A stretch of DNA of 64,000 nt, taken from assembly GCA_046543095.1 (NCBI GenBank), contig JBKHAC010000002.1, positions 2,525 to 66,524 on the forward strand, written 5' to 3'. Made by a program: the position numbers and the translations under genes. Numbering within the stretch: position 1 is the first letter of the stretch; each line of letters starts with the position of its first letter. The notes under the pieces are model-generated. The model was given only the letters and a program-made list of their open reading frames with translations, had not been told where the DNA came from and searched no databases. Source of the DNA: Candidatus Woesearchaeota archaeon (lineage in GTDB: Archaea; Nanobdellota; Nanobdellia; Woesearchaeales; 21-14-0-10-32-9). Positions 3,480 to 63,693 of the stretch are shown piece by piece.

Positions 3480-3595
3480 ATCAGCCTCATTCTCTTTCTT
3501 TTTCTTCGAAGAACTAAATAAACCTATACTAACTCACCTTCTTTTTTAATAAGTCTTATCATATTCTTTATATAAAGCTTTTGTTATTTATTTTA

Positions 3596-3738
3596 GGTTT
3601 TGTCCAGAATAATACAAATAGGTGTACTGCGCAAACCAATCGAAACTGACTTGTATGTTGAACTGAGTCTATCAAATCCCTTGTTTAATTTGAGTACTTT
3701 GCTAGGCAGTATACAAAATATAGATTCTGGACAAGACC
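3596..3738 (+). repeat. Family-1 hairpin repeat (MITE-like), divergent copy
   Basis: Shares GTGTACTGCGCAAACC ... TTTGCTAGGCAGTATACAAAA with copies at 394, 21802, 31529 and 63459. Terminal arms GTCCAGAATA/TATTCTGGAC are complementary. Confidence 0.75.
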
Positions 3739-3900
3739 TTATTTTATTAATATTAGAGCCTGAGTAAGTCCTTACGCTTACCTGAGCAAGTTTTACTCTT
3801 ATAACCATAAACAAATATATTTAAGAATTTAAATTTAGTTAGGCACTCAGAATTTATTTATTGAACATTAATATGCACATATTAAAAACTAATGTGTTTA

Positions 3901-4044
3901 TTACAAATCGGGTTTAATACCTCGCTGCTTCGCAGTGACTTCAGACTCGATTTGTAATGACAGAAAATCCGCCAGCGAAAATTCGCGTAATACTTCGCAG
4001 CTCTGCTGCGCGAGATAGCGAATTTTAGGATTTTCGTTTTATTT
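3901..4044 (+). ncRNA. Family-2 structured repeat; candidate small structured RNA gene (3 copies, all on the + strand)
   Basis: Nested stems TTACAAATCGGGT/ACTCGATTTGTAA, CTGCttcGCAG, GAAAATTCGC...GCGAATTTTC and CGCAGCtctGCTGCG. Ends in a T-rich tract. Copy-to-copy differences are tolerated only as G-T(U) pairs on the + strand. Confidence 0.45.
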
Positions 4045-4522
4045 GATATTTCGCATAAGCTCTATGTTATTTTATTAAGGGGTTTATAATTAAGGGCATA
4101 TAATTTTTATTAGGGGATTTTATAGAATACTTTAGGTTTCTGATTAGTTTTTGATAGGCAAGTTTTGTTTGATTTATGTTTATCAAAGTTTGTGAGGCTT
4201 TTACTATATTGTTATACAACTAAATTTTAATTGTTAAATATAAATTAATTTAGCTTATTGACTTTTTTTGAGTTTTAACCACGACTAAAAAAATAGAAAC
4301 TTTTATAAAGAAAAAGGTCTGGAACATATTGTTGTTTTTTATTAGAGGGTGTATCGACTAATGCTCGAAAACGAAACATTTATATATTATAGGATTTAAA
4401 TATATGAAAAGGTATATTGAAATACAATAACTTACATTAGTTTTGTTTGTTGGTGCATTACAAAAATACCGACGACAAATATAAAAATAATAAAAAAATA
4501 AAATCAAAAACCACTACGCGAG

Positions 4523-5359
4523 GTGAATCATTTGAAGAAAAAAATAACAATGCTTTTGATGACATTCATATTATTGTTTGGAGCATATTCAGTACTAGCA
4601 CAAACAACAGTTCCAGAAGCACCATCAACATTTACTGAGGAAGGCTCATCAAGACGAGACTCTGGTTTGTTGCCTGACCGCTCAATAGAAGCTATAGCAG
4701 GAAATATAACCGCACTAAATATGCACGGTAACACAGTTACAAGAACCTGGTTCGGTGTATATGGTAACGTAACAGGAACACTCGTTTTGAGCAATGGAGA
4801 AAACGATGTGATGTATGATTGGTCAGTTGCAAATCCTCGCGGACAAGTATATGCTACAAGAGCGCCTGAATTATCAGAAACAATTCTATGGAATCAAGTT
4901 GATTGCTATAACTACACAATAACTGACTTGGCAAATTATTATACAATCTCAGAATTAAACGCTGATCTTGGAATTAACCCAACACTAGATCAAGATGCAG
5001 TAAACAGAACATTTAGATACGCGGTTCCAGATCCCGTGGAACCATTGATACAACCGCCTGTGGCTCATTACCATAATGGCTTTTTTGTTGGAACAAAGGA
5101 AATTTTAGAAAATACTTGTCCTGCAACATCACTTTATAGCTCAGGTGCAAATCAAAATTGGGATAGATATCAGCAAGTATTATTATATAATGCAGGAGTT
5201 ACAGGAAATTCTAGCCTAATATATACATCAATAATTGAAGATGGTGAAGTCACAGGCTTTGATGGAACAGATATGGACTTTCAAATGTTACTCGGAGAAA
5301 ATGGTCATGATGGTGACACAGATACAACAACATATTATTTTTATGTAGAACTTGAATAG
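4523..5359 (+). CDS. Secreted paralog-family protein (Sec signal peptide, C-terminal TTYYFYVELE). The more likely start is the TTG at 4532 (MKKKITMLLM...).
   Basis: Signal peptide ...FGAYSVLA/QTT. SD CGAGGTG upstream. Conserved blocks shared with 5377, 8037 and 2..364. Confidence 0.6.
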   Translation: MNHLKKKITMLLMTFILLFGAYSVLAQTTVPEAPSTFTEEGSSRRDSGLLPDRSIEAIAGNITALNMHGNTVTRTWFGVYGNVTGTLVLSNGENDVMYDWSVANPRGQVYATRAPELSETILWNQVDCYNYTITDLANYYTISELNADLGINPTLDQDAVNRTFRYAVPDPVEPLIQPPVAHYHNGFFVGTKEILENTCPATSLYSSGANQNWDRYQQVLLYNAGVTGNSSLIYTSIIEDGEVTGFDGTDMDFQMLLGENGHDGDTDTTTYYFYVELE

Positions 5360-5376
5360 ACGAGGTGTTAAGAAAA

Positions 5377-6219
5377 ATGAAATCATTAAAATTAAGCTTA
5401 TTTTTAATAAGTATGCTATTTTTAGCAACAGCTACAAGCGCGTTTGTGGCAGTATCCGGATTTGACCCAACATACGAGGGTAATTTCTCAGATAGTGCTA
5501 ACCAACCAACAGTTATGACGCACGAGAGAGGATTTATACATGTAGTAAACATAGATAAATCACAACAAACTCCAAGATGGAAAGCATATGTCGGAAACAT
5601 CACAGGCGAACTAGCGCTAGGAGATGGAACATACTCTATTTTCAATTGGAATTTAACTACAATAACAGGTGAAATATACGCAACAAGATATAACGGAACA
5701 TTCGCATCATCCCCTCCAAATTTATCCGAGGAGTGGCCACAAGGTGATTCTAGTAACACATTACCAATATGGTCAACGATGGAATGCGCAACACAAGACG
5801 AAATAAATAATGAAACAACATTATTAAATCATAATTATGATTTAGATGTAGATGCACTTAACAGAACCTTCACAACAGGATTTACATTTCAAAACTTCGC
5901 AGTCGCAAGTAGAACTATAGATACATCAACTTGCAGAGGCACTTTTTTAAATTACAACGCAACAAATGATAACTCCGAGCAAGGCGTAGCAGGCTGGCAA
6001 CAAGTAGTACTAACAGATAGAGGAGATGGAATATCATCAGGAGCTGATTATGCACCTGACCTTATGTATGCAGCATTACTAAAAGACAGCGGACTAGGAT
6101 TTAACGGTGAAGTGTATGATTATCAAATCCTTTTACCAGAAAACGGGGATTTATCTGAGCAAAACCCTGACCCAATTCCCTACTACTTTTACATGGAATT
6201 ACTAGGTAGCGTGAACTGA
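5377..6219 (+). CDS. Secreted paralog-family protein, tandem to the CDS at 4523. The ORF track begins at the GTG at 5365; the ATG at 5377 has better SD spacing.
   Basis: Signal peptide MKSLKLSLFLISMLFLATATSA. Motifs HVVNIDKSQ, W.AYVGNITGEL.LGDG, IYATRYNG and C-terminal PYYFYMEL. Confidence 0.6.
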   Translation: MKSLKLSLFLISMLFLATATSAFVAVSGFDPTYEGNFSDSANQPTVMTHERGFIHVVNIDKSQQTPRWKAYVGNITGELALGDGTYSIFNWNLTTITGEIYATRYNGTFASSPPNLSEEWPQGDSSNTLPIWSTMECATQDEINNETTLLNHNYDLDVDALNRTFTTGFTFQNFAVASRTIDTSTCRGTFLNYNATNDNSEQGVAGWQQVVLTDRGDGISSGADYAPDLMYAALLKDSGLGFNGEVYDYQILLPENGDLSEQNPDPIPYYFYMELLGSVN

Positions 6220-6297
6220 AAACTTTTTTTCTTTTATTTTTTCTTTTATTTTTATCAATAAAGATTTTCTATAAGTATAAATGACTTAATTAGTTTA

Positions 6298-6396
6298 AAT
6301 TACGAGCGGAAGAATCCTCGCTTTTTAGCGTTAGCTAAAAAGTTAACTGAAGGTTAACCCTTTAGGGAGGGGAAGCGCCCTCTAACTTTTTCAATT
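6298..6396 (+). repeat. Family-3 hairpin-rich repeat (short form)
   Basis: GAGCGGAAGAATCCTCGC, TTTTTAGCgttaGCTAAAAA, GTTAACCgaagGTTAACC and AGGGagggGAAGCGCCCT stems. Longer copies at 39181 and 42906. Confidence 0.8.
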
Positions 6397-6722
6397 TAAA
6401 TTTATAATAAAATAATAAATCACACTATTAAACTAAACATGAATTAAGATAATAACTTAATTTATCTATATTATTTCTTAATGCTTTCAATTAATCAACT
6501 AATACTTTAAAATAACGACTTTTTCAAATTAAACACACCTTGAAAAAATTCAATAAAAACTAATGCACATATAAAAAATTTTAAAATAACAAATGCAATC
6601 AAATTTAAACATACTAAAAAAGTTCAGAAAAAGCATTAATTTAATTAATCTAATTTTGAATCTGAAATTAAACATCTCCAACAAAGGTTTATAATTTGAA
6701 ATATAAGATAAAAAAAACTAAT

Positions 6723-7718: not shown

Positions 7719-7894
7719 TTAACAACCCACCTCTAAATATTTTTGGTCACTATTTATTTATAAATATGTCGATTTTTTCAACTTTATTTTCATTTTTTTT
7801 TCAAACTATTTAAACTATTTATTAAATTATTTTTACTTTCATGATTTATTTTCTGAATTTTATTTATTTCTTTGAATTGTTTATGTTATATGAA

Positions 7895-8028
7895 GTATAT
7901 TCGCAGTAGCGCTTTATATGACGCATAAAGATTAAAAAACTATTTGAAAATTATTTGAAATTTACTTTTAAAGCTCGAAAATTTATAATTCTCACATGTA
8001 ATTAAACTTGTTTGATTTTTCTCGTTTA
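7895..8028. repeat. Family-7 element ending in the palindrome AATTAAACTTGTTTGATT plus a T-run, located 3' of the gene at 8037
   Basis: Shares TATATTCGC(A/G)GTAGCGCTTTATATG ... CTATTTGAAAAT ... AATCAAACTTGTTTGATTTTTCTCGTTTA with 62052, 41393 and 53234. Confidence 0.7.
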
Positions 8029-8036
8029 TTTCAAAT

Positions 8037-8762
8037 TTAAATTAATTCAATATAAAAATAATATTCTTCACTCACACTCAAATTCTGATTTTCAGGCAAT
8101 ATTAACTGAAAATCATAAGTGTTATTATTAAAACCAATAGCACCATTTTGCAAGACACTCGAAAAAATTAAATTTGAATTATTATCTGATAAAATAACTT
8201 CTTCAAAATCCCTTGATGATGTGTTGTTATAAACATTTAACGCCGCAGATTTGCAAGAATCGGTTTCAATATAATTAAAAAAAGTGTAAAATGATTCGTG
8301 TTCGCTATCGCTAAATGTTCTATTAACTGAGTACTCAATTGAGGGCTCAAAACCAAGATAACTATCTTCTAAAATAATTTCAGAATTATTCGCGCATCTA
8401 ATATTATTCCAATCTAATGTGTTGCTTCGAGACGCATAAATTTTACCGCGTGTATTGTCCATTATCCAATCAAATAAACTAGTAGAACCATCTCCTAATT
8501 TAAGCCTGCCCGAAATATTACCAACATAACCTCTCCAAAACGGATTAGGCTGAGATGCCTCAATGTTTACTACATGAATATGTCCTCCGCTACTAATAAG
8601 CTCAACTCCCGGCTCGAGAGGAATAGAATAATTATCAACATACGTTATGTTTCCACCAGATGGATAAAAAGGAGAAGAGAACACATTATTAGATAAAACT
8701 AATATTGATGAAAAAAATAAAAGTGCAAAAATTAATTTCACTAAACTATTTGATTTTATCAT
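8037..8762 (-). CDS. Secreted paralog-family protein (fourth member)
   Basis: Signal peptide. Motifs HIHVVNIEASQ, W.GYVGNISGRL.LGDG, IYASRSN and C-terminal EYYFYIELI. Confidence 0.6.
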   Translation of the reverse strand: MIKSNSLVKLIFALLFFSSILVLSNNVFSSPFYPSGGNITYVDNYSIPLEPGVELISSGGHIHVVNIEASQPNPFWRGYVGNISGRLKLGDGSTSLFDWIMDNTRGKIYASRSNTLDWNNIRCANNSEIILEDSYLGFEPSIEYSVNRTFSDSEHESFYTFFNYIETDSCKSAALNVYNNTSSRDFEEVILSDNNSNLIFSSVLQNGAIGFNNNTYDFQLILPENQNLSVSEEYYFYIELI

Positions 8763-20568: not shown

Positions 20569-20717
20569 TATTAAATATTTACATTAATAACAATAAAAAT
20601 CAATTTGTCCCAAATAATACAAAAAAATATACGCCGCGCAAAACTACGCAAATCAAATGAAATTCAATGACAGTAATCTAATAAAAATAATTCAATAAAA
20701 ATAATTTGATAAACAGA

Positions 20718-20880
20718 CCTCATAGAAATCCTTTTCGAACCAATAAAATCTTAATGATGCCTCGCTTCGTTTTCATGTTATTTAGATATTTGAATCGAGT
20801 CTCACATACAACGGATGTTTGATCTAGAACTTAAGCAAGATAGCATTATTATTAAAATTTTAATAGAATTTCTATGAGGC
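20718..20880 (+). repeat. Family-4 ~165-bp TIR element
   Basis: Termini CCTCATAGAAATCC ... GAATTTCTATGAGG. Copies at 29905 (-), 37908 and 48043. Confidence 0.8.
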
Positions 20881-21724: not shown

Positions 21725-21801
21725 ATACTAAACATTTTTTTTCTTTTTTTCCACTTCTATTTTTTAATATTTCAAGATATGTTAATATCGCCTAAGAAAG
21801 A

Positions 21802-21946
21802 GACTTTGTCCCGAATAGTTGTTTTTTGTATACTGCCGAGCAAACCACTCAAAATAAACATTGATTTTTATAGACTCGAATTTAAACCCTAGTGAACATT
21901 GTTCGGTTTGCGCAGTATACAATTCATTGTTATTCGGGACAAAGCC
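21802..21946 (-). repeat. Family-1 hairpin repeat, inverted orientation
   Basis: Reverse complement aligns to the 31529 copy. Stem GTCCCGAATA/TATTCGGGAC carries compensatory changes. Confidence 0.85.
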
Positions 21947-21970
21947 AAGAAAAAAATTAATTTAAAAAAA

Positions 21971-22696
21971 CTAATCAGAACTAGTATTAGTGTCGATATC
22001 AGTGTCATGAATGCCTGTATCTCTAATTACAAAAGACACTTCTTTACCCTCAGGCAAACTCCTATGCTTTCTAATGATTGCTTTTTTTTCAGTATCATGA
22101 CGCTGAAGTTCAATTAAACATTTACTTGCATAACGCAAAATATCCCCACCAACCATATTAATTTTATTTTTATCCTCAAAATCAGCATAAACTTGATTCG
22201 TCACAATTACAGGAATTTTAAATTTACGCGCAATCTGAATTAAATTCACAAGCTGAACACCCAAATCCCTATTAACTTTAAAAACCTCCTTAGTAATGCC
22301 AATCTCAAGCCTATAGAGCATCGCGATACTATCAACAATAATTAAACCAATCTTATCAGTCACAAGATTCTTAAGCTTCTCAAAAACTTTTTTCTGCTCA
22401 GAAAAATTAGTCGGAGTTAAAACAATAACTTTCCTTAAAATCTCATCATAATTATCAGCAAGCTGCTTAATTCTCGAAATAGAAAAAGAACCCTCAGTAT
22501 CAACATAAATGACTTTTTTATCATAATTATTAACCATAGCAAGCAAACACATATTAGACTTACCAGAACCAGGAGGACCATAAATAGTTGTGATTACTTC
22601 ATTTTCATAACCGCCTTCAAGCAACCAATCCAAAATATCAGAACCAGTACTTACCTTAGTATCTTCGTTTTTCATTTTATCAAAACAAGAAAACAC
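21971..22696 (-). CDS. radB: RecA-superfamily ATPase, RadB-like
   Basis: DILDWLLEGGYENEVITTIYGPPGSGKSNMCL Walker A. About 240 aa. Walker B IIVDSIA. Confidence 0.55.
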   Translation of the reverse strand: MFSCFDKMKNEDTKVSTGSDILDWLLEGGYENEVITTIYGPPGSGKSNMCLLAMVNNYDKKVIYVDTEGSFSISRIKQLADNYDEILRKVIVLTPTNFSEQKKVFEKLKNLVTDKIGLIIVDSIAMLYRLEIGITKEVFKVNRDLGVQLVNLIQIARKFKIPVIVTNQVYADFEDKNKINMVGGDILRYASKCLIELQRHDTEKKAIIRKHRSLPEGKEVSFVIRDTGIHDTDIDTNTSSD

Positions 22697-23652: not shown

Positions 23653-23768
23653 GGTGGACAGCTTTCCGGATCTCCCGCCCTTGAAGGCAGTACGCACCGG
23701 AACGTGCATGTGCTTGACTTCCGTGTTCGAAATGAGAACGGGTATATCCACACGGCTTTGACCGTCCA
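23653..23768 (-). rRNA. rrf: 5S ribosomal RNA
   Basis: Reverse complement reads GGACGGTCAAAGCC...CCGTTCTCATTTCGAACACGGAAGTCAAGC...GTACTGCCTTCAAGGGCGGGAGA...GCTGTCCACC. Helix I termini pair. Matches the universal 5S loop C and helix IV/V consensus. GC-rich island in an AT-rich context. Confidence 0.85.
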
Positions 23769-23982
23769 ATACATAGGAATGCACATCCCTTTATAAAGCT
23801 TTTTCTTAAAAATAATTATCTTCAATAATGAAAATAAATTATTTTTCAGGATTTTTAAAAATTATGAAATAAATGTCTTAAATGTCTTGTTCATAATACT
23901 GCAAATATTCCACATAATTATTATCTCATCATGAACTAAAAAAATAAAAGATTTTTAAAGAAAAGACAAGTAATAAAATAAA

Positions 23983-29840: not shown

Positions 29841-29904
29841 AAAACATCATTCTTTATTTTTTTAATTCATTTTTTATTAAATCAACAAAAAACGCTAATT
29901 CTTA

Positions 29905-30068
29905 GGCCTTATAGGAATCCTATTAAAATTTTAATAATGATGCTATCTTGCCTAAGTCATAGATCAAACATCTGTGGTGTGTGAGACTCGGTTCAAATGT
30001 CTAAATAATATGGAAACGGAGCATAGCATCATTAAGATTTTATTGGTTCGAAAAGGATTTCTATGGCG
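29905..30068 (-). repeat. Family-4 TIR element (inverted copy)
   Basis: Reverse complement matches 37908..38086. Confidence 0.8.
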
Positions 30069-30406: not shown

Positions 30407-31480
30407 TTAATTCTTATTAGTATCAAACGGCTCAAGGAAAGTACTAAGCTGACGATTAACCATAAGAAAAGTAGTCCGTTTACTAAATTCTCTCAAATTC
30501 CTTGCACCAATATAAGTACCAGTACTTCTAAGCGACCCAAGAATTTCATGAACAAAATTAGCAACATCCCCTTTATACGGAACCTCAACAGTCCTGCCCT
30601 CACTTGCACGATGCTCATCAACTTTACCATAATACTTATTCATCGCAGTAGCTGAACTCATACCAAAATGCTCCTTAAACTTCAAACCACTACGCTCAAT
30701 TAAAGCGCCACCGCTCTGATCAAAACCTGCAAACATAGACCCAATCATAACAAAATCAGCACCACCACAAAACGCCTTCGCAATACAAGACGGACTTATA
30801 ATGCCACCATCACTCATAATCCTACCTGAACCATTATTCTTACTAATGCCATGCGCAGCATCCGCGCACTCAATTACAGCACTAAGCTGAGGATAACCAA
30901 CACCAGTCTGCCTCCTCGTTGTACACGCAGAACCACTACCAATACCAATTTTAACAATGTCAGCACCTTCAAGAAGTATTTGTTCAGTTATTTCATTAGT
31001 TACAACGTTACCTGCAATAATTATGTGCTCAGGACAAATACTTCTAAGTTCCTTAACTTTACCAGTGAACCGCTCAAGATACGCATTAGGCACATCAAGA
31101 CAAATAAAACTAAATTTATCAAGAAGACCACGCTCTTTCATAATTTTTAATTTATCAAAATCTTCATCACGAATACCAAGACTATATGCAATATAATCGG
31201 GACTATTATAAGACTTAAAAAAAACCTCGAGTTCATCAGCAGAATAAAATTTATGCAAAGCAGTAATAATTTTATGCTTAGACAATGTTTTCGCCATCTC
31301 AAGCGTACCAGATGTTGCCATATTCGCAGTAATTATAGGAATGCCAGACCATTTTTTTGGTGAGTGCAAGAATGTGAATGTTCGCTCAAGCACAACATCA
31401 CGCCTTGATGTAAGCGTACTACGCTTAGGCCTTATTAATACGTCAGAAAAGTCTAGTTTTACTTCATTATCAATTCTCAT
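30407..31480 (-). CDS. guaC: GMP reductase (IMPDH/GuaC family, TIM barrel)
   Basis: Near-colinear with bacterial GuaC: MRI..E.KL.F.DVLIRPKRSTL.SR.DV.LER.FTF...GIGPGSVCTTR..TGVGYPQLSAVIECADAAHG. No CBS insert, which argues against IMPDH. Confidence 0.8.
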   Translation of the reverse strand: MRIDNEVKLDFSDVLIRPKRSTLTSRRDVVLERTFTFLHSPKKWSGIPIITANMATSGTLEMAKTLSKHKIITALHKFYSADELEVFFKSYNSPDYIAYSLGIRDEDFDKLKIMKERGLLDKFSFICLDVPNAYLERFTGKVKELRSICPEHIIIAGNVVTNEITEQILLEGADIVKIGIGSGSACTTRRQTGVGYPQLSAVIECADAAHGISKNNGSGRIMSDGGIISPSCIAKAFCGGADFVMIGSMFAGFDQSGGALIERSGLKFKEHFGMSSATAMNKYYGKVDEHRASEGRTVEVPYKGDVANFVHEILGSLRSTGTYIGARNLREFSKRTTFLMVNRQLSTFLEPFDTNKN

Positions 31481-31528
31481 ATTGTTTAATTAATTTGTTT
31501 TATTATATTAAACTTTCTCCTAAAATAT

Positions 31529-31673
31529 GGCTCTGTCCCAAATAACAATGAAGTGTATACTGCGCAAACCGAACAATGTTCACTAGATTTTAAATCCGAG
31601 TCCATAAAAACCAATGTTTATTTTGAGTGGTTTGCTCGGCAGTATACAAAAAACAACTATTTGGGACAAAGCC
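31529..31673 (+). repeat. Family-1 hairpin repeat (reference copy)
   Basis: 145 bp with imperfect long inverted arms and an internal palindrome GAACAATGTTC. Confidence 0.85.
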
Positions 31674-31782
31674 TAAAATATACAAAACGTAACTATCGCA
31701 TAATAGAAACTTTTAAATAAACGTTCAAATTAACAAGTTTAATTAAAGCAATTAAACAAAAATGAAGCTTTAAAGATTAAAA

Positions 31783-36974: not shown

Positions 36975-37080
36975 TTAGTTGATAAATGCACTGGAATTTA
37001 AAAACATAATGGGTGCTTGTCTAGTGTAAATAAAGAGTTACTTCTTTTTAGTGGTTAAAAAAAGAAAGATTTAAATAAAT

Positions 37081-37878
37081 ATGTTTATTAAATACTTTAA
37101 TATGACAAATTTTTTTCAAAAAAGCAAAAAAGATCTAATATCAATAATAGCAGGAGCTAGCTTATTTTTAAATGTTGCGTGCATGCAAAATAAAAACATT
37201 TCTCAAATATATGAACTGCCAATTCAACAAGAAATAGATATAGAAGAAAATAAAATATTGTATGATGTAATAAACCAAACTCTAGGAGAATTCAAAGAAT
37301 ATGATTTAATCAAAGAAATAGATTTTTATAACGACAGAATATTGTGGGGCTATGTTGATGGAGATAGCACTCTACAAAATTTCACATTAGGTCTAAACAA
37401 GTACAGCGCACTTAAAAAAGATAAAACGCCAACTAACAACTTTATTTATACACTAATTCACGAGCAAGGACATTTAATTTCCTTAAATTCAAATCAAGTA
37501 ACTCCATATTATGATGCCGATATATGCCCAACACTTGAGTTGCCTGAAGGCTGCCTCAAACAAAATTCATATTTATACGATTTTTATAAAGAATTCTGGC
37601 AAGACGAACACGCCCAAAAAAATTATCTTGAAAATAATACAAATTCCTTAAAATTTAATATATTTCATTTTAAAAACAGAAAAAATTTCTTGAATGCTAA
37701 CGCATCAACAAATATCACAGAGGATTTCGCAGAAAGCTTCACACACTACGTACTTGATATAAGTGTCAATGAAAAACACAAATCATATCAAAAAATAACC
37801 TTCTTCGACAAATATGATGATTTAAAAGATATGAAAGAGAGAATACAACAAAATTTATCTAAATTTATAGAAAAATAA
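37081..37878 (+). CDS. Secreted/lipoprotein-like putative zinc metallopeptidase (HExxH)
   Basis: N-terminal signal with Cys (LFLNVAC). HEQGH motif (LIHEQGHLISL). Confidence 0.4.
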   Translation: MFIKYFNMTNFFQKSKKDLISIIAGASLFLNVACMQNKNISQIYELPIQQEIDIEENKILYDVINQTLGEFKEYDLIKEIDFYNDRILWGYVDGDSTLQNFTLGLNKYSALKKDKTPTNNFIYTLIHEQGHLISLNSNQVTPYYDADICPTLELPEGCLKQNSYLYDFYKEFWQDEHAQKNYLENNTNSLKFNIFHFKNRKNFLNANASTNITEDFAESFTHYVLDISVNEKHKSYQKITFFDKYDDLKDMKERIQQNLSKFIEK

Positions 37879-37907
37879 AATAAGCCAAAAATAATATTAT
37901 CAAAAAG

Positions 37908-38086
37908 GTCTCATAGAAATAAGGCCTCATAGAAATCCTTCTCGAACCAATAAAATCTTAATGATGCTATGCTCCGTTTCCATATTATTTAGACATTTGA
38001 ACCGAGCCCTACACACCACAGATGTTTGATCTGAGACTTAGGCAAGATAGCATCATTATTAAAATTTTAATAGGATTTCTATAAGA
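37908..38086 (+). repeat. Family-4 TIR element, with a duplicated left terminus
   Basis: GGTCTCATAGAAATAAGGCCTCATAGAAATCC ... GGATTTCTATAAG. Confidence 0.8.
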
Positions 38087-38132
38087 TCATCAAAAACCAA
38101 AATTTAAATACTAAAAAAACTTTTTAAAAAAA

Positions 38133-38548: not shown

Positions 38549-39034
38549 TTAATCACCTAATTGACGAATATCTGCAACAACAGGACAAGACAATTTCTTA
38601 ATATCACCAACTTTAAGCTTAAATAAAGAATAAATAGTGCCACCCCCAACCAAAACAACCTCGTCATCAGATAAATCACAATCAATAACAAACCTCGCAG
38701 AGTAACCAAAAGGAGGAACGCCACCTGCAGGATAACCAACAAAACTCAAAACATCATCAAAACTAATCAAATCAAGTTTGCCAGAGCCAAAAACATCCTT
38801 GACTTTACTTTTCCGCACACGCTCAGTACTACGAATAATTGCAGAATAAACAACATTCTCTTTGTCTTTAAACAAAATAGTCTTAACAATCTTACTCAAA
38901 TCAAGCTTTGATGCTGAGGCTGAACTCTTCGAATCTTTAACAGATTCCTCAAAGACTATTAATTCAGCATTTATGTCTTTGTCTTTTAAAATCTTAAGTA
39001 ATTTATCTTGAGACATAAAAATAAACAAAAACAT
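38549..39034 (-). CDS. YbaK/ProX-type aminoacyl-tRNA deacylase domain protein
   Basis: GYPAGGVPPFGY...VIDCDL...VLVGGG matches the YbaK/ProRS-associated editing domain. Confidence 0.65.
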   Translation of the reverse strand: MFLFIFMSQDKLLKILKDKDINAELIVFEESVKDSKSSASASKLDLSKIVKTILFKDKENVVYSAIIRSTERVRKSKVKDVFGSGKLDLISFDDVLSFVGYPAGGVPPFGYSARFVIDCDLSDDEVVLVGGGTIYSLFKLKVGDIKKLSCPVVADIRQLGD

Positions 39035-39180
39035 AAAATATTAAAAATTTTATGAAACTAAAACATATTTAAATTAACACAAAATAGCGCACCTCACAAA
39101 ACAAGATACTTCAAAAATACATTGAGCACTGAGACTAATGGCTCTAAAGTTCAAAGGAACAAATATATTTGTATAACTTA

Positions 39181-39370
39181 AATTACGAGCGGAAGAAATC
39201 CTCAATTTTTTTGCGCGGGGCAAAAAAATGTTACCTTTAGGCTTCAGATTTTTTCTCTCTCTAATTTGCCAAAGTTAAAGCGGAAGAAATCCTTGATTTT
39301 TAGCGTTAGCTAAAAAGTTAACCGAAGGTTAACCCTTTAGGGCGGGGAAGTGCCCTCCAACTTTTTCAAT
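39181..39370 (+). repeat. Family-3 repeat, long form (duplicated head module plus a TTTTTTTGCgcgggGCAAAAAAA hairpin)
   Basis: Aligns with 42906..43097 and with 6298..6396 over its 3' 100 nt. Confidence 0.8.
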
Positions 39371-39488
39371 TAAGCAGTATTAATTTTACACAGCACTAAA
39401 ATATTATAACACAAATTAAAAAAAATTTTATTTCTAGAGCCTCTAATATTAGCAAAATATAAATATGCGGCCATCTTCCTAAACAATT

Positions 39489-40043
39489 ATGATTGACGAA
39501 TCAATAAAACTTACTGAAAACGAGAAAAAAGTATTAAAAGAACTAACTGACAAAGGAAGAATAACAGATACTAAACTCGCAGACTCAATGGCAATAACTC
39601 AACAAGCAGTATACCAAATAAGAAACAGACTCGAAAGTCTAGGGATAATAGAAGGATATGAACCCATATTAAATTTAAAAAAAATAGGAATAAAAATAAT
39701 ATGGGTTATAGGAATAGAAATACTACCTGAGATGTGGGAAAACTTAAAGGAACACGAAATAACAAAAAGATTACAAGAAATACCTCACACACTAAAAATA
39801 ATAAGATTGCCATCATCAGATATATCATATATTATAATACTAGGACTAAAATCCATAATTGAACGAGAAACACTATCAGCCCAAATAGAAACAAAACTAG
39901 CCAAAAAAATAAATATAGTCTGGTCATACACAACATCATGTGATAACTACATAGAAAAAAATAAAACAAACTGCATAGACTACGCAACGAGCAAAAAAGA
40001 ATTTAACTATACTAAACTAATCGAAAAATTAAACAAAAAGTAA
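39489..40043 (+). CDS. HTH transcription regulator (Lrp/AsnC-like N-terminal wHTH)
   Basis: LKELTDKGRITDTKLADSMAITQQAVYQIRNRLESLGII. Confidence 0.5.
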   Translation: MIDESIKLTENEKKVLKELTDKGRITDTKLADSMAITQQAVYQIRNRLESLGIIEGYEPILNLKKIGIKIIWVIGIEILPEMWENLKEHEITKRLQEIPHTLKIIRLPSSDISYIIILGLKSIIERETLSAQIETKLAKKINIVWSYTTSCDNYIEKNKTNCIDYATSKKEFNYTKLIEKLNKK

Positions 40044-40064
40044 CATACAAAAAAATACAAATAA

Positions 40065-40097
40065 CTATTTGTAATATACAAGAAACAATTTTTAAAC
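40065..40097 (+). promoter_or_regulatory. Duplicated 33-bp promoter-proximal module (family 8), 35 bp upstream of pcm
   Basis: Identical CTATTTGTAATATACAAGAAACAATTTTTAAAC at 41664..41697, 51 bp upstream of the 41748 gene. Contains a TATA-like TAATATAC. Confidence 0.5.
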
Positions 40098-40131
40098 TTC
40101 TACCACCTAAATAATACTTGGAGGCAAATTA

Positions 40132-40730
40132 ATGCGAGAAGAATTCGTAAAAAAACTACAAGAAAAAGGAGTAGCAAAAAATCCAAGAGTTGCAGCAGCA
40201 CTAAAAGACACAAACCGCGCAGACTTTATGATAACAGGCGACCCAGAACAAGATGAACCACAAAGAATTTACGCAGGACAAACAATAAGCCAACCATACA
40301 CAGTAGCGTTCATGCTAGACTTATTAAGACTCAAACCCGGACAAAAAATATTAGATGTCGGAAGTGAAAGCGGATGGACAACCACTCTTCTCGCACACAT
40401 AACAGGAGAAGAAGAAAATGTAATAGGTGTAAAAATAGAACCAGAACTCGTATCATTTGGACAAAACAATTTAAAAAAAATACCTTTTTGAAAATACAAA
40501 AATAATCAAAGCAACTACAAACACATACGGCGCGCCAGAATACACATTATACAACAGACTACAACTATCTGCCGCGGCAACAGAAGAAGCAATACAAATA
40601 CTATTAAAACAATTAAAATCAGATGGAATAGTAGTAGAACCCTTAGGCCAAGAAATACTAAAAATAACAAAAGAAAAAAGAGAAAGATGGCGAAGTTTTA
40701 GTTTTGTACCACTCAAAAAAATAAATTCAT
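40132..40730 (+). pseudogene. pcm: Protein-L-isoaspartate O-methyltransferase with a +1 frame break at an A8 run (40481..40488). Intact if the run were A7.
   Basis: N-terminal part ends ...NNLKKIPF* at 40491. The next frame continues YLFENTKIIKATTNTYGAPEY...GIVVEPLG...FSFVPLKKINS, matching the PCMT C-terminal half. Confidence 0.6.
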
Positions 40731-40751
40731 AAAACAACGAGGTAAATAAAC

Positions 40752-41078
40752 ATGACCAATAAAAAAAATACAGGAATATTAACCATAATTAAAGAAACCC
40801 TAAAACAAATAATAAACTTGATGTTAGATGACATTTTAGACAAAATAAATAACAAAACAGAAATCATGATAAAAAAAACAGAACACAAAATCCTGAAACT
40901 ACAAAAAAAACTACTAAAAAACATGACAGCATACACCCTAACAATAATAGGGGCTTTTTTTTTAATACTCGCATTTCTATTTTTCTTAATAGAATATGTG
41001 ATGCTAAGCAAAACAATATCATTCTTAATTACAGGAATGATAATAATAATCACAGGGTTTTTAATAAAAAAACTCTGA
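40752..41078 (+). CDS. Small membrane protein
   Basis: Two C-terminal TM helices. SD-like AACGAGGTAAAT upstream. Confidence 0.4.
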   Translation: MTNKKNTGILTIIKETLKQIINLMLDDILDKINNKTEIMIKKTEHKILKLQKKLLKNMTAYTLTIIGAFFLILAFLFFLIEYVMLSKTISFLITGMIIIITGFLIKKL

Positions 41079-41095
41079 TGAGGAGGTAGAAAAAA

Positions 41096-41371
41096 ATGGC
41101 AAATAAGAAAAAAGAAGAATTAAGAAAACAATTATATGACAGAGTAGACGCGCTAATAGATGAAACCGAAGATATAACAGAACGTGGAAAAAACATCGCG
41201 GAAAATATACATGAAAAAATACACGAAACAAAAAAAAACATATACGACGCACGAGAGAGAACAGACAAATACATACAAGAAAAACCCGAACAATCAGTAC
41301 TAATCGCAGCAGGCGTAGGCGCAGCAATAGGCGCAATAATCACAGCAACTATTATGAGACGACGAAACTAA
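41096..41371 (+). CDS. DUF883/ElaB-YqjD-like tail-anchored protein
   Basis: Coiled-coil N-terminus and a C-terminal TM helix ending RRRN. SD GAGGAGGTAGAAAAAAATG. Confidence 0.45.
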   Translation: MANKKKEELRKQLYDRVDALIDETEDITERGKNIAENIHEKIHETKKNIYDARERTDKYIQEKPEQSVLIAAGVGAAIGAIITATIMRRRN

Positions 41372-41392
41372 CTATTTTTTAGGTTATATAAA

Positions 41393-41480
41393 GTATATTC
41401 ACGGTAACGCGTTCATATAATACAGAAAAATCAAACTACTATTTGAAAATTTAATCAAACTTGTTTGATTTCTCTGGTTA
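41393..41480 (+). repeat. Family-7 element with the AATCAAACTTGTTTGATT palindrome, 3' of the gene ending at 41371
   Basis: GTATATTCACGGTAACGCGTTCATATAA...CTATTTGAAAATTTAATCAAACTTGTTTGATTTCTCTGG. Confidence 0.7.
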
Positions 41481-41747
41481 ACTTTTCAAAATCTTTATTA
41501 AATTACAACAGAAAGGAGTCTTGTTTTTTGTTGTTAGATGAGAATATAATTTATATGAATTGAGAACTTGTTTAAGTGATAATCATTTAAAGAGGAAAGA
41601 TAGTATTCTCTGTTTTTACAAGTTTCTCGCGCCGTATACTTGATTACAATTAAATTTAATTATATATTTGTAATATACAAGAAACAATTTTTAAACATTT
41701 GTTTACATATTATATTTATGATTTAGTTAACTGGAGGAGGTTATTTT

Positions 41748-42035
41748 ATGAAATACTTGTTAATTTTTGGAGCGCTTTCTTTACTTTTTTTGGCGGGTTG
41801 CACTCAGAGTATCAATGATATTAAAAACGAAGACAAAATAGGAGATCGCGTAGTTGTTAGGGGTGTTGTTGACTCATCTATTAAAATAGGTGATTTGTCA
41901 GGTTTTGTCTTAGTTGATGATAGAGACGAGTCTATTGCAGTGGCAAGTGATGATTTGCCTGCTGAAGGTGAGAACGTTATTATTCGTGGTGTTTTAATGA
42001 GAGACGCTATTTTTGGATATTATATCCAAAATTAA
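41748..42035 (+). CDS. Small lipoprotein (LAGC lipobox) with an OB-fold-like domain
   Basis: MKYLLIFGALSLLFLAGC. G/T3-rich codon usage, atypical for this window. Confidence 0.5.
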   Translation: MKYLLIFGALSLLFLAGCTQSINDIKNEDKIGDRVVVRGVVDSSIKIGDLSGFVLVDDRDESIAVASDDLPAEGENVIIRGVLMRDAIFGYYIQN

Positions 42036-42083
42036 TTATTAAATATTTTTTTAAATTAATTCAAGTAGAAGAAGGTGTTTTAT

Positions 42084-42218
42084 ATGGAGATTGGTTTATT
42101 TATAAGTCCTGTTATTACAATTATCACAGGGATTTTGATCTTAATATTTCCTAATTCGTTAAGATTCTTAGTCGGTGGTTATTTGATTTTAATAGGTATT
42201 GTTAATTTGTTATTTTAA
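42084..42218 (+). CDS. 44-aa two-helix membrane peptide (DUF3096-like)
   Basis: MEIGLFISPVITIITGILILIFPNSLRFLVGGYLILIGIVNLLF. SD GAAGGTG upstream. Not in the ORF track (below its length cutoff). Confidence 0.4.
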   Translation: MEIGLFISPVITIITGILILIFPNSLRFLVGGYLILIGIVNLLF

Positions 42219-42228
42219 GCTTTAGGAG

Positions 42229-42462
42229 GTGGTTTATTTGCCTTACAAAAAGGTTTCGAGTTTGCCTGAGCAAGTAAAAGATAATTTGCCCAAACACGCG
42301 ATGAAGATTTACAAAGAGGCTTACAATAATGCATTCGAACAATATAAAGATCCATCAAAAAGGAAAGGCGACGCATCTAGAGAAGAAGCGGCGCACAAAG
42401 TTGCTTGGGCTGCTGTTAAGCAGAAATATGAAAAAGAAGGTGATAGATGGGTAGAGAAATAA
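42229..42462 (+). CDS. ChaB-family protein
   Basis: LP..VKDNLPKHAMKIYKEAYNNA...EEAAHKVAWAAVKQKYEKEGDRW matches the ChaB consensus. SD TTAGGAGGTGG. Confidence 0.6.
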   Translation: MVYLPYKKVSSLPEQVKDNLPKHAMKIYKEAYNNAFEQYKDPSKRKGDASREEAAHKVAWAAVKQKYEKEGDRWVEK

Positions 42463-42488
42463 TTTTTTTAATTTTTTTATTGGTTTTA

Positions 42489-42632
42489 TTACAAATTGAG
42501 TTTAATACCTCGCTGCTTCGCAGTGACTTCAGACTCGATTTGTAATGACAGAAAATCCGCCAGCTAAAATTCGCGTCAGTACTACGCAGCTCTGCTGCGC
42601 GAGATAGCGAATTTTAGGATTTTCGTTTTATT
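42489..42632 (+). ncRNA. Family-2 structured element, copy B, ending directly at the SD of the gene at 42642
   Basis: Same stems as 3901..4044. Outer stem TTACAAATTGAGT/ACTCGATTTGTAA has a T-G wobble. Confidence 0.45.
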
Positions 42633-42641
42633 GGAGGTGAT

Positions 42642-42887
42642 ATGATGGAACCATATACAAATATACAACATGTCGTTCCCGCAGATGGTAAGTGGGGCGT
42701 TAGGGCTGAGAATAGTGAGCAACCATCTAAACTATTTGATTTGAAGATGAGTGCGATATCTCATGCGTTTGATATTACAAAAAAGCATGAGGGGGGACGA
42801 GTGGTTGTTCATCGCGAGGATGGCTCTTTTGAAAATGTTAATATAACTGAAGATACATCCAAGTTAATGACTATTTTGAGGTCTTAA
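42642..42887 (+). CDS. DUF2188-like small protein
   Basis: VVPADGKWGVRAENSEQPSKLFDLKMSAISHAFDITKK...VVVHREDGSF pattern. SD GGAGGTGA. Confidence 0.5.
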   Translation: MMEPYTNIQHVVPADGKWGVRAENSEQPSKLFDLKMSAISHAFDITKKHEGGRVVVHREDGSFENVNITEDTSKLMTILRS

Positions 42888-42905
42888 TTTTTTCTTTTTT
42901 TCTTT

Positions 42906-43097
42906 AAATTACGAGCGGAAGAAATCCTCAATTTTTTTGCGTCAAGGAAAAAAATGTTGCCTTTAGGCTTCAGATGTTTTCCCTCACTAATTTGCTAAAG
43001 TTAGAGCGGAAGAATCCTCGCTTTTTAGCGTTAGCTAAAAAGTTAACCGAAGGTTAACCCTTTAGGGGGGGGAAGTGCCCTCTAACTCTTTCAATTT
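42906..43097 (+). repeat. Family-3 repeat, long form; a partial extra copy at 43141..43215
   Basis: Aligns to 39181..39370. Confidence 0.8.
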
Positions 43098-43405
43098 TTG
43101 TCAAGATTCTTTTTTATTATCTTATGTCGTCTATTTATGTATAGAATAATTCTTAATTTTTAGCGCTAGCTAAAACAAAGTTAACGTTTTAAGGAAAAGC
43201 GCATCTAACTTTTTAAAAGTTCTTCATAGTTTAGTTTAATTTAAAAGCATTATACTAAAAAGACTTCGGTTTTTCTCGCATCCTTAAAATTCGCCGTTTA
43301 AGAAAGTGTTCAGTCATACCTCGCGCTTTAGCTTGGGATTGAACACTTTCGACAAATTGTCATAAGTTTAGAAAAAATATGCTCGCAATTTAATAAAAAA
43401 ATCAT

Positions 43406-43765
43406 TCAAATAACTAAATTCATACGAAGCGTAGCATACCTTAAAAGCTCACGCAAAACAACTTGCTCACCTGCACTCAAACTCTTCGATAACTCTTTTA
43501 CTTTAATGAAAAAAAACTTATCACGATTAACCCAAATCTGAGTTTTATCACCATTAAAATCATGAAAAAAAGCAACACTACTCTTTTTCTCCTCAAGAAC
43601 AAGAAGAATCTCACCAAGCTCAACATCACTCATCTTAACTTTCTTCCAAGACCAAGAACTACCAATGTTTTTACCGAACTCAAAATAAAATTCACACCGC
43701 TCATTAAGATAAGCCTTTAAACAATTATCTTTACCAAAAAAATCACGACCAAAAATTTTCTTCAT
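43406..43765 (-). CDS. Hypothetical protein
   Basis: ORF only. Confidence 0.3.
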   Translation of the reverse strand: MKKIFGRDFFGKDNCLKAYLNERCEFYFEFGKNIGSSWSWKKVKMSDVELGEILLVLEEKKSSVAFFHDFNGDKTQIWVNRDKFFFIKVKELSKSLSAGEQVVLRELLRYATLRMNLVI

Positions 43766-47950: not shown

Positions 47951-48042
47951 TCTCTAAAGCCTCCTTATATGCGCATACGCACACAAATTATTTATCCAAC
48001 TTTATTTATAACCTCTCGACTTTAAAAATATTTCTTTTAATC

Positions 48043-48208
48043 GGACTCATAGAAATCCTTTTCGAACCAATAAAATCTTAATGATGCTATGCTCCGTTTC
48101 CATATTATTTAGACATTTGAACCGAGCCCTACACACCACAGATGTTTGATATATGACTTAGGCAAGATAGCATCATTATTAAAATTTCAATAGAATTTCT
48201 ATAAGGCC
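48043..48208 (+). repeat. Family-4 TIR element
   Basis: GGACTCATAGAAATCC ... GAATTTCTATAAGGCC. Confidence 0.8.
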
Positions 48209-48303
48209 ATTTAATTAGCTGCAGGCAAAAATCTTGCAGGACGCAACAATCATAACTCGCAATTTAATAATATTTAAATAAACAGGGTCCAACCCCAATA
48301 ATA

Positions 48304-49980: not shown

Positions 49981-50194
49981 AAGAATAAATAAACAAAAAA
50001 AAACAAATTTAAAACTTACTCAAAAAAAACCGAAAAAACCACGAACAAAATTAAAAATATGACTTTTAAAAATTATAATTGTTTTATAATATCTTCACAT
50101 CATAAAATCTTTTTATGATACAACCGAGTCTTAAATATGATACTTAGGTGCCAGCTACACATGCACAAAAATCAGGTCTTGCCTAGAATGGTGC

Positions 50195-50320
50195 AAATAT
50201 GTATGCTGCACAAATTAATAAAGCCAGAATTGTTTATTAAAACGAGGTTATTGAAACCAATATTTGAGTTCAGTGGTTTGCCAAACAGTATACAAAATAC
50301 AGACATTCTAAATAAGCACA
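50195..50320 (+). repeat. Degenerate family-1 repeat copy in the leader region upstream of rpl1
   Basis: GAAACCAATATTTGAGTTCAGTGGTTTGCCAAACAGTATACAAAATACAGAC aligns to AAACCAATGTTTATTTTGAGTGGTTTGCTCGGCAGTATACAAAAAACAAC. Confidence 0.55.
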
Positions 50321-54140: not shown

Positions 54141-54167
54141 TTAAATAATTTATTAAAATAAAGTTGT

Positions 54168-54294
54168 GGACAAAATTTTTTGGTAATACCACGAACTTCG
54201 AGCATTATTTGGTTCGTGGTGCCGAGTCTATTTAATTCGTGTTTAAATCCATATTGCTCGTTTAGGTATTACCAACTTTTTATATCCTTTACTA
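54168..54294 (+). repeat. Family-5 TIR element
   Basis: GGTAATACCACGAACTTCGAG ... CTCGTTTAGGTATTACC. Copies at 55265, 57523 (head) and 58228 (tail). Confidence 0.75.
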
Positions 54295-54969: not shown

Positions 54970-55036
54970 AACTACAAGGATAAAAAAACAATTTTTCTAA
55001 CAATACCTGCATAGCGTAGACGAGCAAAGAGTTTTA

Positions 55037-55180
55037 TTACAAATTGGGTTTAATACCCCGCTGCTTCGCAGTGACTTCAGACTCGATTTGTAATGACAGA
55101 AAATCCGCCAGCGAAAATTCGCGTCAGTACTCCGCAGCTCTGCTGCGCGAGATAGCGAATTTTAGGATTTTCGTTTTATT
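55037..55180 (+). ncRNA. Family-2 structured element, copy C
   Basis: Outer stem TTACAAATTGGGT/ACTCGATTTGTAA (two G-T wobbles). Inner stems conserved. Confidence 0.45.
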
Positions 55181-55195
55181 TCGTTTTTAAAACCG

Positions 55196-55264: not shown

Positions 55265-55395
55265 TGGACAAAAGTTTTTGATAATGCCACGAGCTTCGCA
55301 TATTATTTAGTATATGGCACCGAGTCTATCGAATTCGTATTTGAATTCGTATTGCTCTTTTAGGCATTACCAACTTTTTATGTCCTCAACTATTT
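55265..55395 (+). repeat. Family-5 TIR element (intact reference copy)
   Basis: GACAAAAGTTTTTGATAATGCCACGAGCTTCGC ... GTATTGCTCTTTTAGGCATTACCAACTTTTTATGTCCTCAACTA. Confidence 0.75.
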
Positions 55396-57522: not shown

Positions 57523-57640
57523 GACAAAAGTTTTTGATAATGCCACGAGCTTCGCATATTGGTTGGTTTGTGGCGCCGAGCATGTTGAATTCGTGTTTAA
57601 ATTTGTATTGCCCGCCAGAGGCTCTCTTAATTTTAAAAAC
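57523..57640 (+). repeat. Family-5 element head, interrupted at 57612..57622
   Basis: Matches 55265..55375, then diverges at CCGCCAGAGGC. Confidence 0.7.
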
Positions 57641-58227: not shown

Positions 58228-58273
58228 TCTAGTCTCCGCCAGAGGCATTACTAATTTTTTATGTCCTCAACTA
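58228..58273 (+). repeat. Family-5 element tail (resumes after CCGCCAGAGGC at 58236..58246)
   Basis: CCGCCAGAGGCATTACTAATTTTTTATGTCCTCAACTA matches the 3' end of 55265..55395. Confidence 0.7.
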
Positions 58274-62021: not shown

Positions 62022-62051
62022 AAAACCAGTTCTTTTTTATGTCATATAAAT

Positions 62052-62139
62052 TATATTCGCGTTAGCGCTTTATATGCCACACAAAAATCAAACAACTATT
62101 TAAAAAATTTAATCAAACTTATTTGATTTTTCTCGTTTA
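62052..62139 (+). repeat. Family-7 element with the AATCAAACTTATTTGATT palindrome, between the ferredoxin and the U32 gene
   Basis: TATATTCGCGTTAGCGCTTTATATGCCACACAAAA ... AATCAAACTTATTTGATTTTTCTCGTTTA. Confidence 0.7.
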
Positions 62140-62198
62140 ATAAAACGTCAATAAAAACAACAAAACATATTAAACAAAAAGTATTACCAAATATTAAT

Positions 62199-63449
62199 AT
62201 GCCTAAAAATTCTAATAAAAAAATAGAACTCCTAGCGCCAGCAGGCTCATGGGAATCATTACGTGCAGCAATACAAGCAGGAGCCAATTCAGTTTATTTC
62301 GGCGTAGACAAACTCAATATGAGAGCACGCGCAGCAAACAATTTCAAAATAAGCGATCTAAAAAAAATAATGACACTTTTACACACAAATAACCTGAAAG
62401 GATATTTAACGCTAAATATTGTCGTTTACGATGATGAAATAAAAGATGTAAAAAAAACACTAACAGCTGCAAAACGCGCAGGAGTTGATGCAATAATCGC
62501 ATCGGATTTTGCAGTAATAACAGAAGCAAAAACACAAGGACTTAACGTACATCTTAGCACACAAGCAAATATATCAAATACCTGTGCAGTAAAATTTTAT
62601 TCAAATTACGCTGACGCAGTCGTACTTGCCCGCGAACTCACACTTGATAAAATAAAAAAAATAAATACAGAAATAAAAAAATTAAATATTACAGGTCCCT
62701 CAGGAAAACTAGTTGAAACAGAAGTATTTATACACGGAGCTCTATGTGTTGCAATATCAGGAAAATGCTACATGAGCCTCGCAACATACGGACACTCAGC
62801 AAACAGAGGCGACTGCCTTCAAACCTGCCGACGAAAATACAAAGTACATGACGAGGAAACAGGAAATGAACTTATAATTGATAATGAATATGTGATGTCA
62901 CCTAGTGATTTATCAACAATAACAATTCTTGACAAAATTATAAGTGCAGGCGCACATATTTTAAAAATAGAAGGCAGAGGCCGAAGCCCGGAATACGTGT
63001 ATGAAGTCACAAAAACATACAGCGACGCACTCAAACTCATAAAAGAAAAAAAATACACAGAAAAAAAAATAAACGAGCTACAAGAGAGACTCAAAAAAGT
63101 ATTCAACCGCGGATTCTGGGAAGGAGGATACTACCTAGGCGCAAAAATAAACGAATGGTCCAAAGTATACGGCTCAAAAGCCACACAAACAAAAAGACTC
63201 GTCGGCAGAGTTATGAATTATTACACAAAACAAGAAGCAGCAGCAATCGTAATCGAATCAACACCAATAAAAAAAGAAGACATACTCATAATAATGGGAC
63301 CTACAACAGGAATAATTCAATTTACAATAGATAAAATACTACTTGAAGGCAAAACAGCAAACGATGCTAAAAAAAACCAAATAATATCAATAAAAACACC
63401 AACAAAAGTTCGACGAAATGATAAAGTTTACGTAATTAAGCAAAATTAA
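62199..63449 (+). CDS. Peptidase U32 family protein (PrtC/YhbU/RlhA-like Fe-S enzyme family)
   Basis: ELLAPAGSWESLRAAIQAGANSVYFG... U32 N-terminal signature. 416 aa. Confidence 0.8.
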   Translation: MPKNSNKKIELLAPAGSWESLRAAIQAGANSVYFGVDKLNMRARAANNFKISDLKKIMTLLHTNNLKGYLTLNIVVYDDEIKDVKKTLTAAKRAGVDAIIASDFAVITEAKTQGLNVHLSTQANISNTCAVKFYSNYADAVVLARELTLDKIKKINTEIKKLNITGPSGKLVETEVFIHGALCVAISGKCYMSLATYGHSANRGDCLQTCRRKYKVHDEETGNELIIDNEYVMSPSDLSTITILDKIISAGAHILKIEGRGRSPEYVYEVTKTYSDALKLIKEKKYTEKKINELQERLKKVFNRGFWEGGYYLGAKINEWSKVYGSKATQTKRLVGRVMNYYTKQEAAAIVIESTPIKKEDILIIMGPTTGIIQFTIDKILLEGKTANDAKKNQIISIKTPTKVRRNDKVYVIKQN

Positions 63450-63458
63450 TGATAAATC

Positions 63459-63603
63459 TGCTCCGCCCCAAATAACAATGAAGTGTATACTGCGCAAACC
63501 GAACAATGTTCACTAGATTTTAAATCCGAGTCCATAAAAACCAATGTTTATTTTGAGTGATTTGCTCGGCAGTATACAAAAAACAACTATTTGGGACAAA
63601 ACC
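63459..63603 (+). repeat. Family-1 hairpin repeat
   Basis: Near-identical to 31529..31673 (a few substitutions). Confidence 0.85.
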
Positions 63604-63693
63604 GATAAATTCAAATCTTTAAAAATAATTTTTTACTTAAAAATAGTTAAGGTCTTAGAAAGATTTATATAATATTTATCAATCAAAAAAAAT

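Follow-up and report, generated by a model that had tools for sequence, protein, structure and literature searches.

The stretch analysed here, hereafter the window, is 64 kb from the chromosome of an uncultured Woesearchaeota archaeon (DPANN), and its genes are archaeal, including those for Hef, an archaellum ATPase and membrane protein, SecDF, an archaeal ribosome-rescue protein, GINS and ribosomal proteins. The 5S rRNA gene, at 23653-23769 on the minus strand, stands alone, with no 16S or 23S neighbours in the window. Four paralogous proteins, 26–38% identical, are encoded within 9 kb (11-364, 4523-5359, 5365-6219 and 8037-8762), and their homologues were found almost only on archaeal MAG and metagenome contigs. 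The window also holds several families of short repeats, one of which, family 3, is the subject of the present analysis; its copies are all on the plus strand and all intergenic.

Family 3 occurs as one short copy (A), two long copies (B and C) and one decayed copy. Copy A (6296..6397, plus strand) is a single unit of the type that we call beta, whereas B and C each consist of a beta unit with another unit, alpha, placed directly 5′ of it. In copy B, the alpha unit (39178..39270, plus strand) contains a head and a perfect hairpin, TTTTTTTGC-GCGGG-GCAAAAAAA, and the beta unit (39271..39372, plus strand) contains the head, the hairpins TTTTTAGC/GCTAAAAA, GTTAACC/GGTTAAC and AGGGC/GCCCT, and a T5 tail. 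The alpha unit of copy C (42904..42995, plus strand) has a degenerate hairpin, TTTTTTTGCGTCAAGGAAAAAAA, and is followed by the beta unit at 42996..43097 (plus strand). The decayed copy (43144..43216, plus strand) is a full-length beta unit, running from head to tail with internal deletions. Copies A, B and C were seen in a self-comparison of the window, and nhmmer profiles added the decayed copy; the coordinates and modules given for them in the original prediction proved to be real, as did the letters of the two inserted hairpins that it had quoted.

The self-comparison showed that the beta units of A, B and C (~100 nt) are 86–92% identical in pairs and that the two alpha units (~93 nt) are 90% identical to each other. 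With the unit profiles, nhmmer returned three beta units with E values of 1e-35 to 1e-37, two alpha units with E values of about 1e-31 and, more weakly, the beta match at 43144-43216 (E 1.5e-5), and no further copies elsewhere in the 64 kb window. The head module AGCGGAAGAA(A)TCCT occurs exactly five times in the window compared with an expectation of zero, and GTTAACNGAAGGTTAAC and TTTTTAGCGTTAGCTAAAAA occur three and four times compared with 0.04 and 0.1 expected from shuffled sequence respectively. When the long copies were compared as wholes, 39178-39371 and 42904-43096 aligned over 194 nt with 91% identity, which ended abruptly at both sides, the flanks being unrelated. This alignment shows that the 194-nt alpha–beta dimer was itself copied as one unit with sharp boundaries. 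No ORF of at least 30 aa was found within any family-3 unit, the units being 93–110 nt and the dimer 194 nt in size.

The original prediction had described the long form as a duplication of the head module with an inserted hairpin. The modules are real, but a dimer of two related units describes them better. A beta unit is about 100–110 nt long and has a conserved head, GAGCGGAAGAA(A)TCCTC, three palindromes and imperfect inverted ends of 13–18 nt. Alpha could be aligned with beta over its full length with about 58% identity, and the alpha and beta profiles detected each other's units (E 1e-7 to 2e-4). Alpha also has the head of beta (TTAAATTACGAGCGGAAGAAATCCTC), an analogous hairpin of a T-run, GC and an A-run, and the CCTTTAGG motif; its 3′ end, CTCTCTAATTTGCC, is the counterpart of the beta 3′ end, CCCTCTAACTTTTTCAA, and only the middle (GTTAAC) hairpin is absent. 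Because of this whole-length alignment, the cross-detection and the matching 3′ ends, the long form is best described as two diverged units of the same family joined head to tail in a dimer. The left tip of copy A, TTTAAATTACGAGCGGAAG, is of the alpha type, being identical to alpha over 20 nt, and is joined to a beta body, which is the product expected of recombination between two direct head modules. Copy A is thus related to the dimer through such an event, either a deletion from the dimer or, equally possibly, the reverse event in which the dimer was made. In the decayed copy (43144-43216), identity in the aligned columns is 78%, and 14 of the 20 substitutions are from G/C to A/T; it is an old copy, decaying toward the 31% G+C of the genome, as expected for a neutral selfish insert.

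The inverted ends of the beta units are imperfect (18 nt at 78%, 16 nt at 75% and 13 nt at 85%); the 18-nt arms of the beta unit of C lie at 42989-43006 and 43080-43097 (78% complementary), and those of the beta unit of B at 39261-39276 and 39359-39374. When the core was defined as ATTACGAG...TTTCAA, copy A (core 6299-6394) was flanked by TTTAA on both sides (6294-6298 and 6395-6399) and copy B (whole-dimer core 39182-39369) by TTAA on both sides (39178-39181 and 39370-39373), whereas the flanks of copy C were TTTAA and TTTTT. From the frequency of TT(T)AA in long gaps, a match at two or more of the three copies has a chance of about 0.003; because the core boundary was chosen after inspection, this match is only suggestive. 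An alternative model with an 8-bp duplication, TTTAAATT, fits copy A only, and an identity of 9–10 nt between the family-3 head and the inverted end of another repeat family in the window, F2, is expected by chance. Several known classes of repeat were considered and rejected: a CRISPR array (the copies are 3.7 and 33 kb apart and non-coding, and no cas gene was found), the repeats of a diversity-generating retroelement (the copies differ at all four bases, and no reverse transcriptase was found), and domain V of a group II intron and ORB-like origin boxes, neither of which fits the sequence.

Family 3 shares the window with at least five other families. F1 is a canonical MITE of ~165 nt with six copies (387-560, 3587-3738, 21794-21975 on the minus strand, 31493-31686, 50174-50303 and 63457-63625). 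Its inverted ends, GGCTYTGTCCCAAATA, are perfect, and its target duplications measure 8 bp, as in TAAAATAT for the 31493 copy and CTTTCTTC for the 387 copy. F2, also a MITE, is ~190 nt long with four copies (20696-20880, 29894-30065 on the minus strand, 37922-38085 and 48023-48219), inverted ends GGCGCCATAGAAATCC and duplications of 8–9 bp (CTAAGAATT and ATCAAAAA at the 29894 and 37922 copies, respectively). An F2 copy and a 265-aa ORF without family match occupy positions 36975-38132 between the Hef and DUF2304 genes, which are adjacent (56–110 nt apart) in the relatives L014 and L016. F4 (~150 nt; 3897-4046, 42483-42635 and 55031-55181) has two long hairpins without inverted ends. Compared with the empty site at 3200-3207 of the related locus L037, its copy at 42491-42624 has been inserted precisely between the genes for ChaB and DUF2188; the direct repeat GTTTTATT occurs once in L037 and twice in the window, where it bounds the insert, and is common to all three F4 copies. 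F5 and F6 are short intergenic repeats (7876-8028, 41374-41479 and 62033-62139; also 54167-54294, 55265-55392, 57523-57614 and 58243-58273), with three and three to four copies in the window respectively, and a weak BLAST similarity to F5 was seen past the right end of the window (L035 12680-12780, 72% over 106 nt, E 1e-5). In total, the window contains at least six short repeat families, which make up about 3.7 kb or 6% of its sequence; L037 contains none of them.

Gaps of more than 300 nt number 2.0 per 10 kb in the window compared with 0–0.65 in relatives, being three or more times commoner here, and most of them contain a repeat; coding density, by a crude ORF measure, is 0.83 in the window and 0.86–0.94 in the larger loci of relatives. 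The suggestion that small elements accumulate in long intergenic regions was therefore right in spirit, with six families and gaps that mostly bear repeats. The proposal that different families nest together in four particular gaps was not supported: 3480-4522 holds F1 and F4 copies and no family 3, 6220-6722 and 39035-39488 hold family 3 only, and in 42888-43405 an intact family-3 copy lies side by side with a decayed one. The F4 copy at 42483-42635 is just upstream of the small gene preceding copy C. Nor was there a link to tRNA genes, of which the window has none, or to a replication-associated site, since the trend of the cumulative GC skew is unchanged across the window and gives no hint of a replication origin.

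The window matches a second assembly, GCA_964462285.1, with 99.95–100% identity over the overlapping parts. Of the short-read contigs of this organism, L044 (window 4015-6318) reaches from the interior of an F4 copy to the head of family 3 at 6318, and L036 (window 62091-63496) extends from an F5 copy to an F1 copy; an F1 copy near window 31428-31483 also marks the junction of the two contigs of GCA_964462285.1. Contig ends inside repeats fit a multi-copy sequence and, as independent assemblies break in F4, family 3, F5 and F1, repeat counts for this genome that are based on MAGs are underestimates.

Lengthening the contig, by 5 kb on the right and 2.5 kb on the left, brought in no further family-3 copy, and the ~71.5 kb of the genome examined thus contains three family-3 loci and one decayed copy. 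A search for more contigs of this genome by way of paralogues of a local protein family led only to other organisms. No copies were found in about 120 kb of related genomes, in which the nearest relatives compared show 56–78% protein sequence identity, or in GTDB species representatives, JGI metagenomes, IMG/VR, phages and plasmids. Pattern scans gave 12 matches in the GTDB representatives and 0 and 16 in the JGI metagenomes; all 28 were judged to be chance matches, because the similarity found by nhmmer was confined to the pattern itself. A 13-nt match, CTAATTTGCCAAA, in a spacer of L037 was within the range of shuffled controls. Family 3 is absent from L037 although the adjacent genes share about 80% nucleotide identity. 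In these searches it is therefore restricted to its lineage or species, and none of the collections searched holds a relative of it. Such restriction to one species is typical of MITEs. No relative offers a precise empty site for family 3, because even the nearest has only ~80% nucleotide identity and is rearranged.

The two dimers bracket a block of genes, a point that the original prediction had missed and that is new here. The block (39373..42903, no strand assigned) contains an HTH_24/Lrp regulator gene, a frameshifted PCMT gene, two small ORFs, a 95-aa ORF and DUF3096, ChaB and DUF2188 genes, with a small DUF883_C gene among them. The genes that lie outside it, tRNA_edit (38549-39034) and a 119-aa gene (43406-43765), are 47 nt apart in the relatives L016-L018, and in a nucleotide alignment window positions 39049 and 43387 join at L016 positions four bases apart, indicating that 39050-43386 is extra sequence here. 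Dimers B and C are in direct orientation near both ends of this extra sequence. The 3.5-kb block is absent at the tRNA_edit/119-aa site in L016-L018 and is found as a cluster elsewhere in L037, with about 80% nucleotide identity, different neighbours and the second half inverted. The inverted part in the window is the sub-block 41744-42905 (the 95-aa ORF, DUF3096, ChaB and DUF2188), and a 52-nt copy of the HTH–PCMT spacer is duplicated before it (40046-40097 and 41645-41696); together these look like a rearrangement scar. The PCMT gene (40132-40740) is interrupted after about 117 codons, the L037 orthologue being intact with 197 aa, and represents either a pseudogene with a frameshift or an error in the consensus. 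Within the extra sequence, downstream of the 119-aa gene, a hairpin of 49 nt whose stem has 11 bp, GAAAGTGTTCA...TGAACACTTTC, lies at 43302-43350 on the minus strand and occurs only once in the window.

We consider family 3 to be a lineage-specific, short, non-coding and hairpin-rich family of MITE-like elements or small dispersed repeats, with a probability of about 0.6. This reading is based on the discrete copies with sharp edges and unrelated flanks at three loci, on motif counts far above chance, and on elements that are all intergenic and free of ORFs, one of them decayed. It also draws on the company that the family keeps, namely the canonical MITEs F1 and F2 and the precise F4 insertion, on its absence from the relatives and databases searched and on the contigs that break in repeats; the beta inverted ends, imperfect as they are, and the TT(T)AA flanks of A and B point in the same direction. 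In a published census, moreover, a Woesearchaeal genome is among the most MITE-dense archaeal genomes (PMC11602168). Counted against it are the small number of loci in the sequence examined, the weakness of the inverted ends and the failure of the flanking repeat at copy C. Furthermore, a scan of about 49 ORFs of the window turned up no transposase, integrase or reverse transcriptase, no insertion sequence with ends matching family 3 was found in the window, and a precise empty site is missing; B and C may also stem from one rearrangement rather than from two transpositions.

This last possibility deserves to be weighed on its own. B and C would be scars or substrates of a single rearrangement, and the 194-nt alpha–beta sequence would be the boundary repeat of the relocated 3.5-kb block, which would have moved through homologous recombination of dispersed copies, through mobilisation of a unit bounded by two small repeats, or at an att-like site by a recombinase encoded elsewhere. 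The separation of the 47-nt neighbours by 39050-43386, the direct dimers near each end, their 91% identity with sharp edges, and the occurrence of the block in L037, where it is a conserved cluster with other surroundings, are all consistent with it. We nevertheless regard it as rather unlikely, since no recombinase or transposase is in or near the block, the repeats are not fully identical, copy A and the decayed copy lie away from the block edges, and matching TTAA flanks B itself on either side. In addition, the outer flanks of B and C share no duplication, and the repeats are separated from the ancestral junctions by unrelated sequence, 143 nt in one case and about 300 nt in the other. The more general proposal that pairs of alpha–beta dimers in a DPANN archaeon mark out and move blocks of chromosomal genes, such as the 3.5-kb HTH/PCMT/DUF2188 cluster, is in our judgement quite doubtful. 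If true, it would provide an archaeal counterpart of MITE-bounded gene mobilisation units, driven by a putative transposase or recombinase. Such units are mentioned in PMC11602168, where MITE pairs bound blocks in integron or resistance-gene mobilisation in Acinetobacter and Enterobacter. As far as that mention goes, the likeness is that B and C are direct and bracket a few kb of cargo that sits elsewhere in relatives; unlike those blocks, no duplication flanks the whole B–C unit and the cargo consists of conserved chromosomal small stress-type genes, making it a candidate for mobilisation only.

Selection on family 3 as a functional RNA element, either a small structured ncRNA gene or a bidirectional terminator/insulator cassette, also seems unlikely. 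The copies are all on one strand, their folding compared with shuffles gave z values of -1.5 to -3.8, the third hairpin followed by T5 scores as terminator-like, and copies A and C are directly downstream of plus-strand genes. Moreover, a C-to-T change in hairpin 2 of copy A retains a G–U pair, on the plus strand only, and the first hairpin is kept in alpha and beta through an A–T to T–A flip. However, covariation did not support the consensus fold (term +0.94; 1 of 25 pairs compensatory), and in a search of Rfam 15 the only match of the window at the gathering score was the 5S rRNA, with nothing credible across 38900-43500 even at E values up to 10. One copy has decayed freely, the element is missing in relatives that retain the neighbouring genes, copy B is in a divergent promoter region with no obvious role for a terminator, and the promoter-like TATA of the downstream gene is outside the element. 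A palindrome-associated, hairpin-ended derivative of the IS200/IS605 type would move as ssDNA and integrate, without duplication, on the 3′ side of a short fixed target, and the family is very unlikely to be of this kind. TTAC precedes and TCAA ends every copy, these being the cleavage sites of IS608, about 18 nt lie between TTAC and the first hairpin, and all copies have a single orientation and no consistent target duplication. On the other hand, the hairpins at the two ends share no sequence relationship, as those of IS200/IS605 ends do, the conservation on the left reaches 9 nt (TTAAATTAC), no TnpA or TnpB gene (Y1_Tnp, OrfB) was found in the window, and TT(T)AA direct repeats flank two copies.

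Family 3 was also compared with known systems. Like MITEs, it is short, non-coding, intergenic, species-restricted and foldable, and coexists with several other MITE families in one genome; it has several copies in the ~71.5 kb examined, imperfect inverted ends and, at two copies, short flanking direct repeats. It differs from them in the weakness of the inverted ends (75–85% over 13–18 nt), in a flanking duplication at only two of the three copies, and in having neither a parent insertion sequence or transposase in the window nor a sequence match in the collections searched. Modular structured repeats are known from bacteria, where they include the pneumococcal BOX A-B-C, RUP, Correia and ERIC/IRU elements. 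Family 3 resembles these in having modules in varying number and combination, serial hairpins, intergenic positions and possible termination or promoter signals, but its host is archaeal, its sequence is unrelated and its modules are two diverged copies of one unit. REP/BIME sequences with RAYT transposases are extragenic palindromes in composite mosaics (PMC2817692 and PMC3733652), and the palindromes of family 3 are likewise extragenic and arranged as a composite mosaic. REPs, however, are 20–40 nt long and G+C-rich, with GTAG/CGTC heads, alternating orientation and high copy number, whereas family 3 shows none of these traits, having A+T-rich stems, no GTAG/CGTC head and one orientation, and no RAYT-like gene was seen.

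If family 3 is indeed MITE-like, the alpha–beta dimer would have become the unit that is copied. By analogy with the other families in the window, which carry clear transposition signatures, the elements may have spread by means of a transposase supplied in trans and inserted preferentially at TT(T)AA-like sites. Each copy would contribute palindromes and oligo-T runs on both strands, and would add dispersed homology able to drive rearrangement. Oligo-T runs are the archaeal intrinsic termination signal. The genome clearly hosts active or recently active small mobile elements.

The finding alone opens no new biological question. A genome of a usually compact type carries, in this window, about 6% of short repeats, along with enlarged spacers, a gene with a frameshift and rearrangements of local gene order. 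The repeats break short-read assemblies of the organism and mark spots where its gene order departs from that of relatives. Family 3 would be a new addition to the little-studied small mobile repeats of DPANN archaea.
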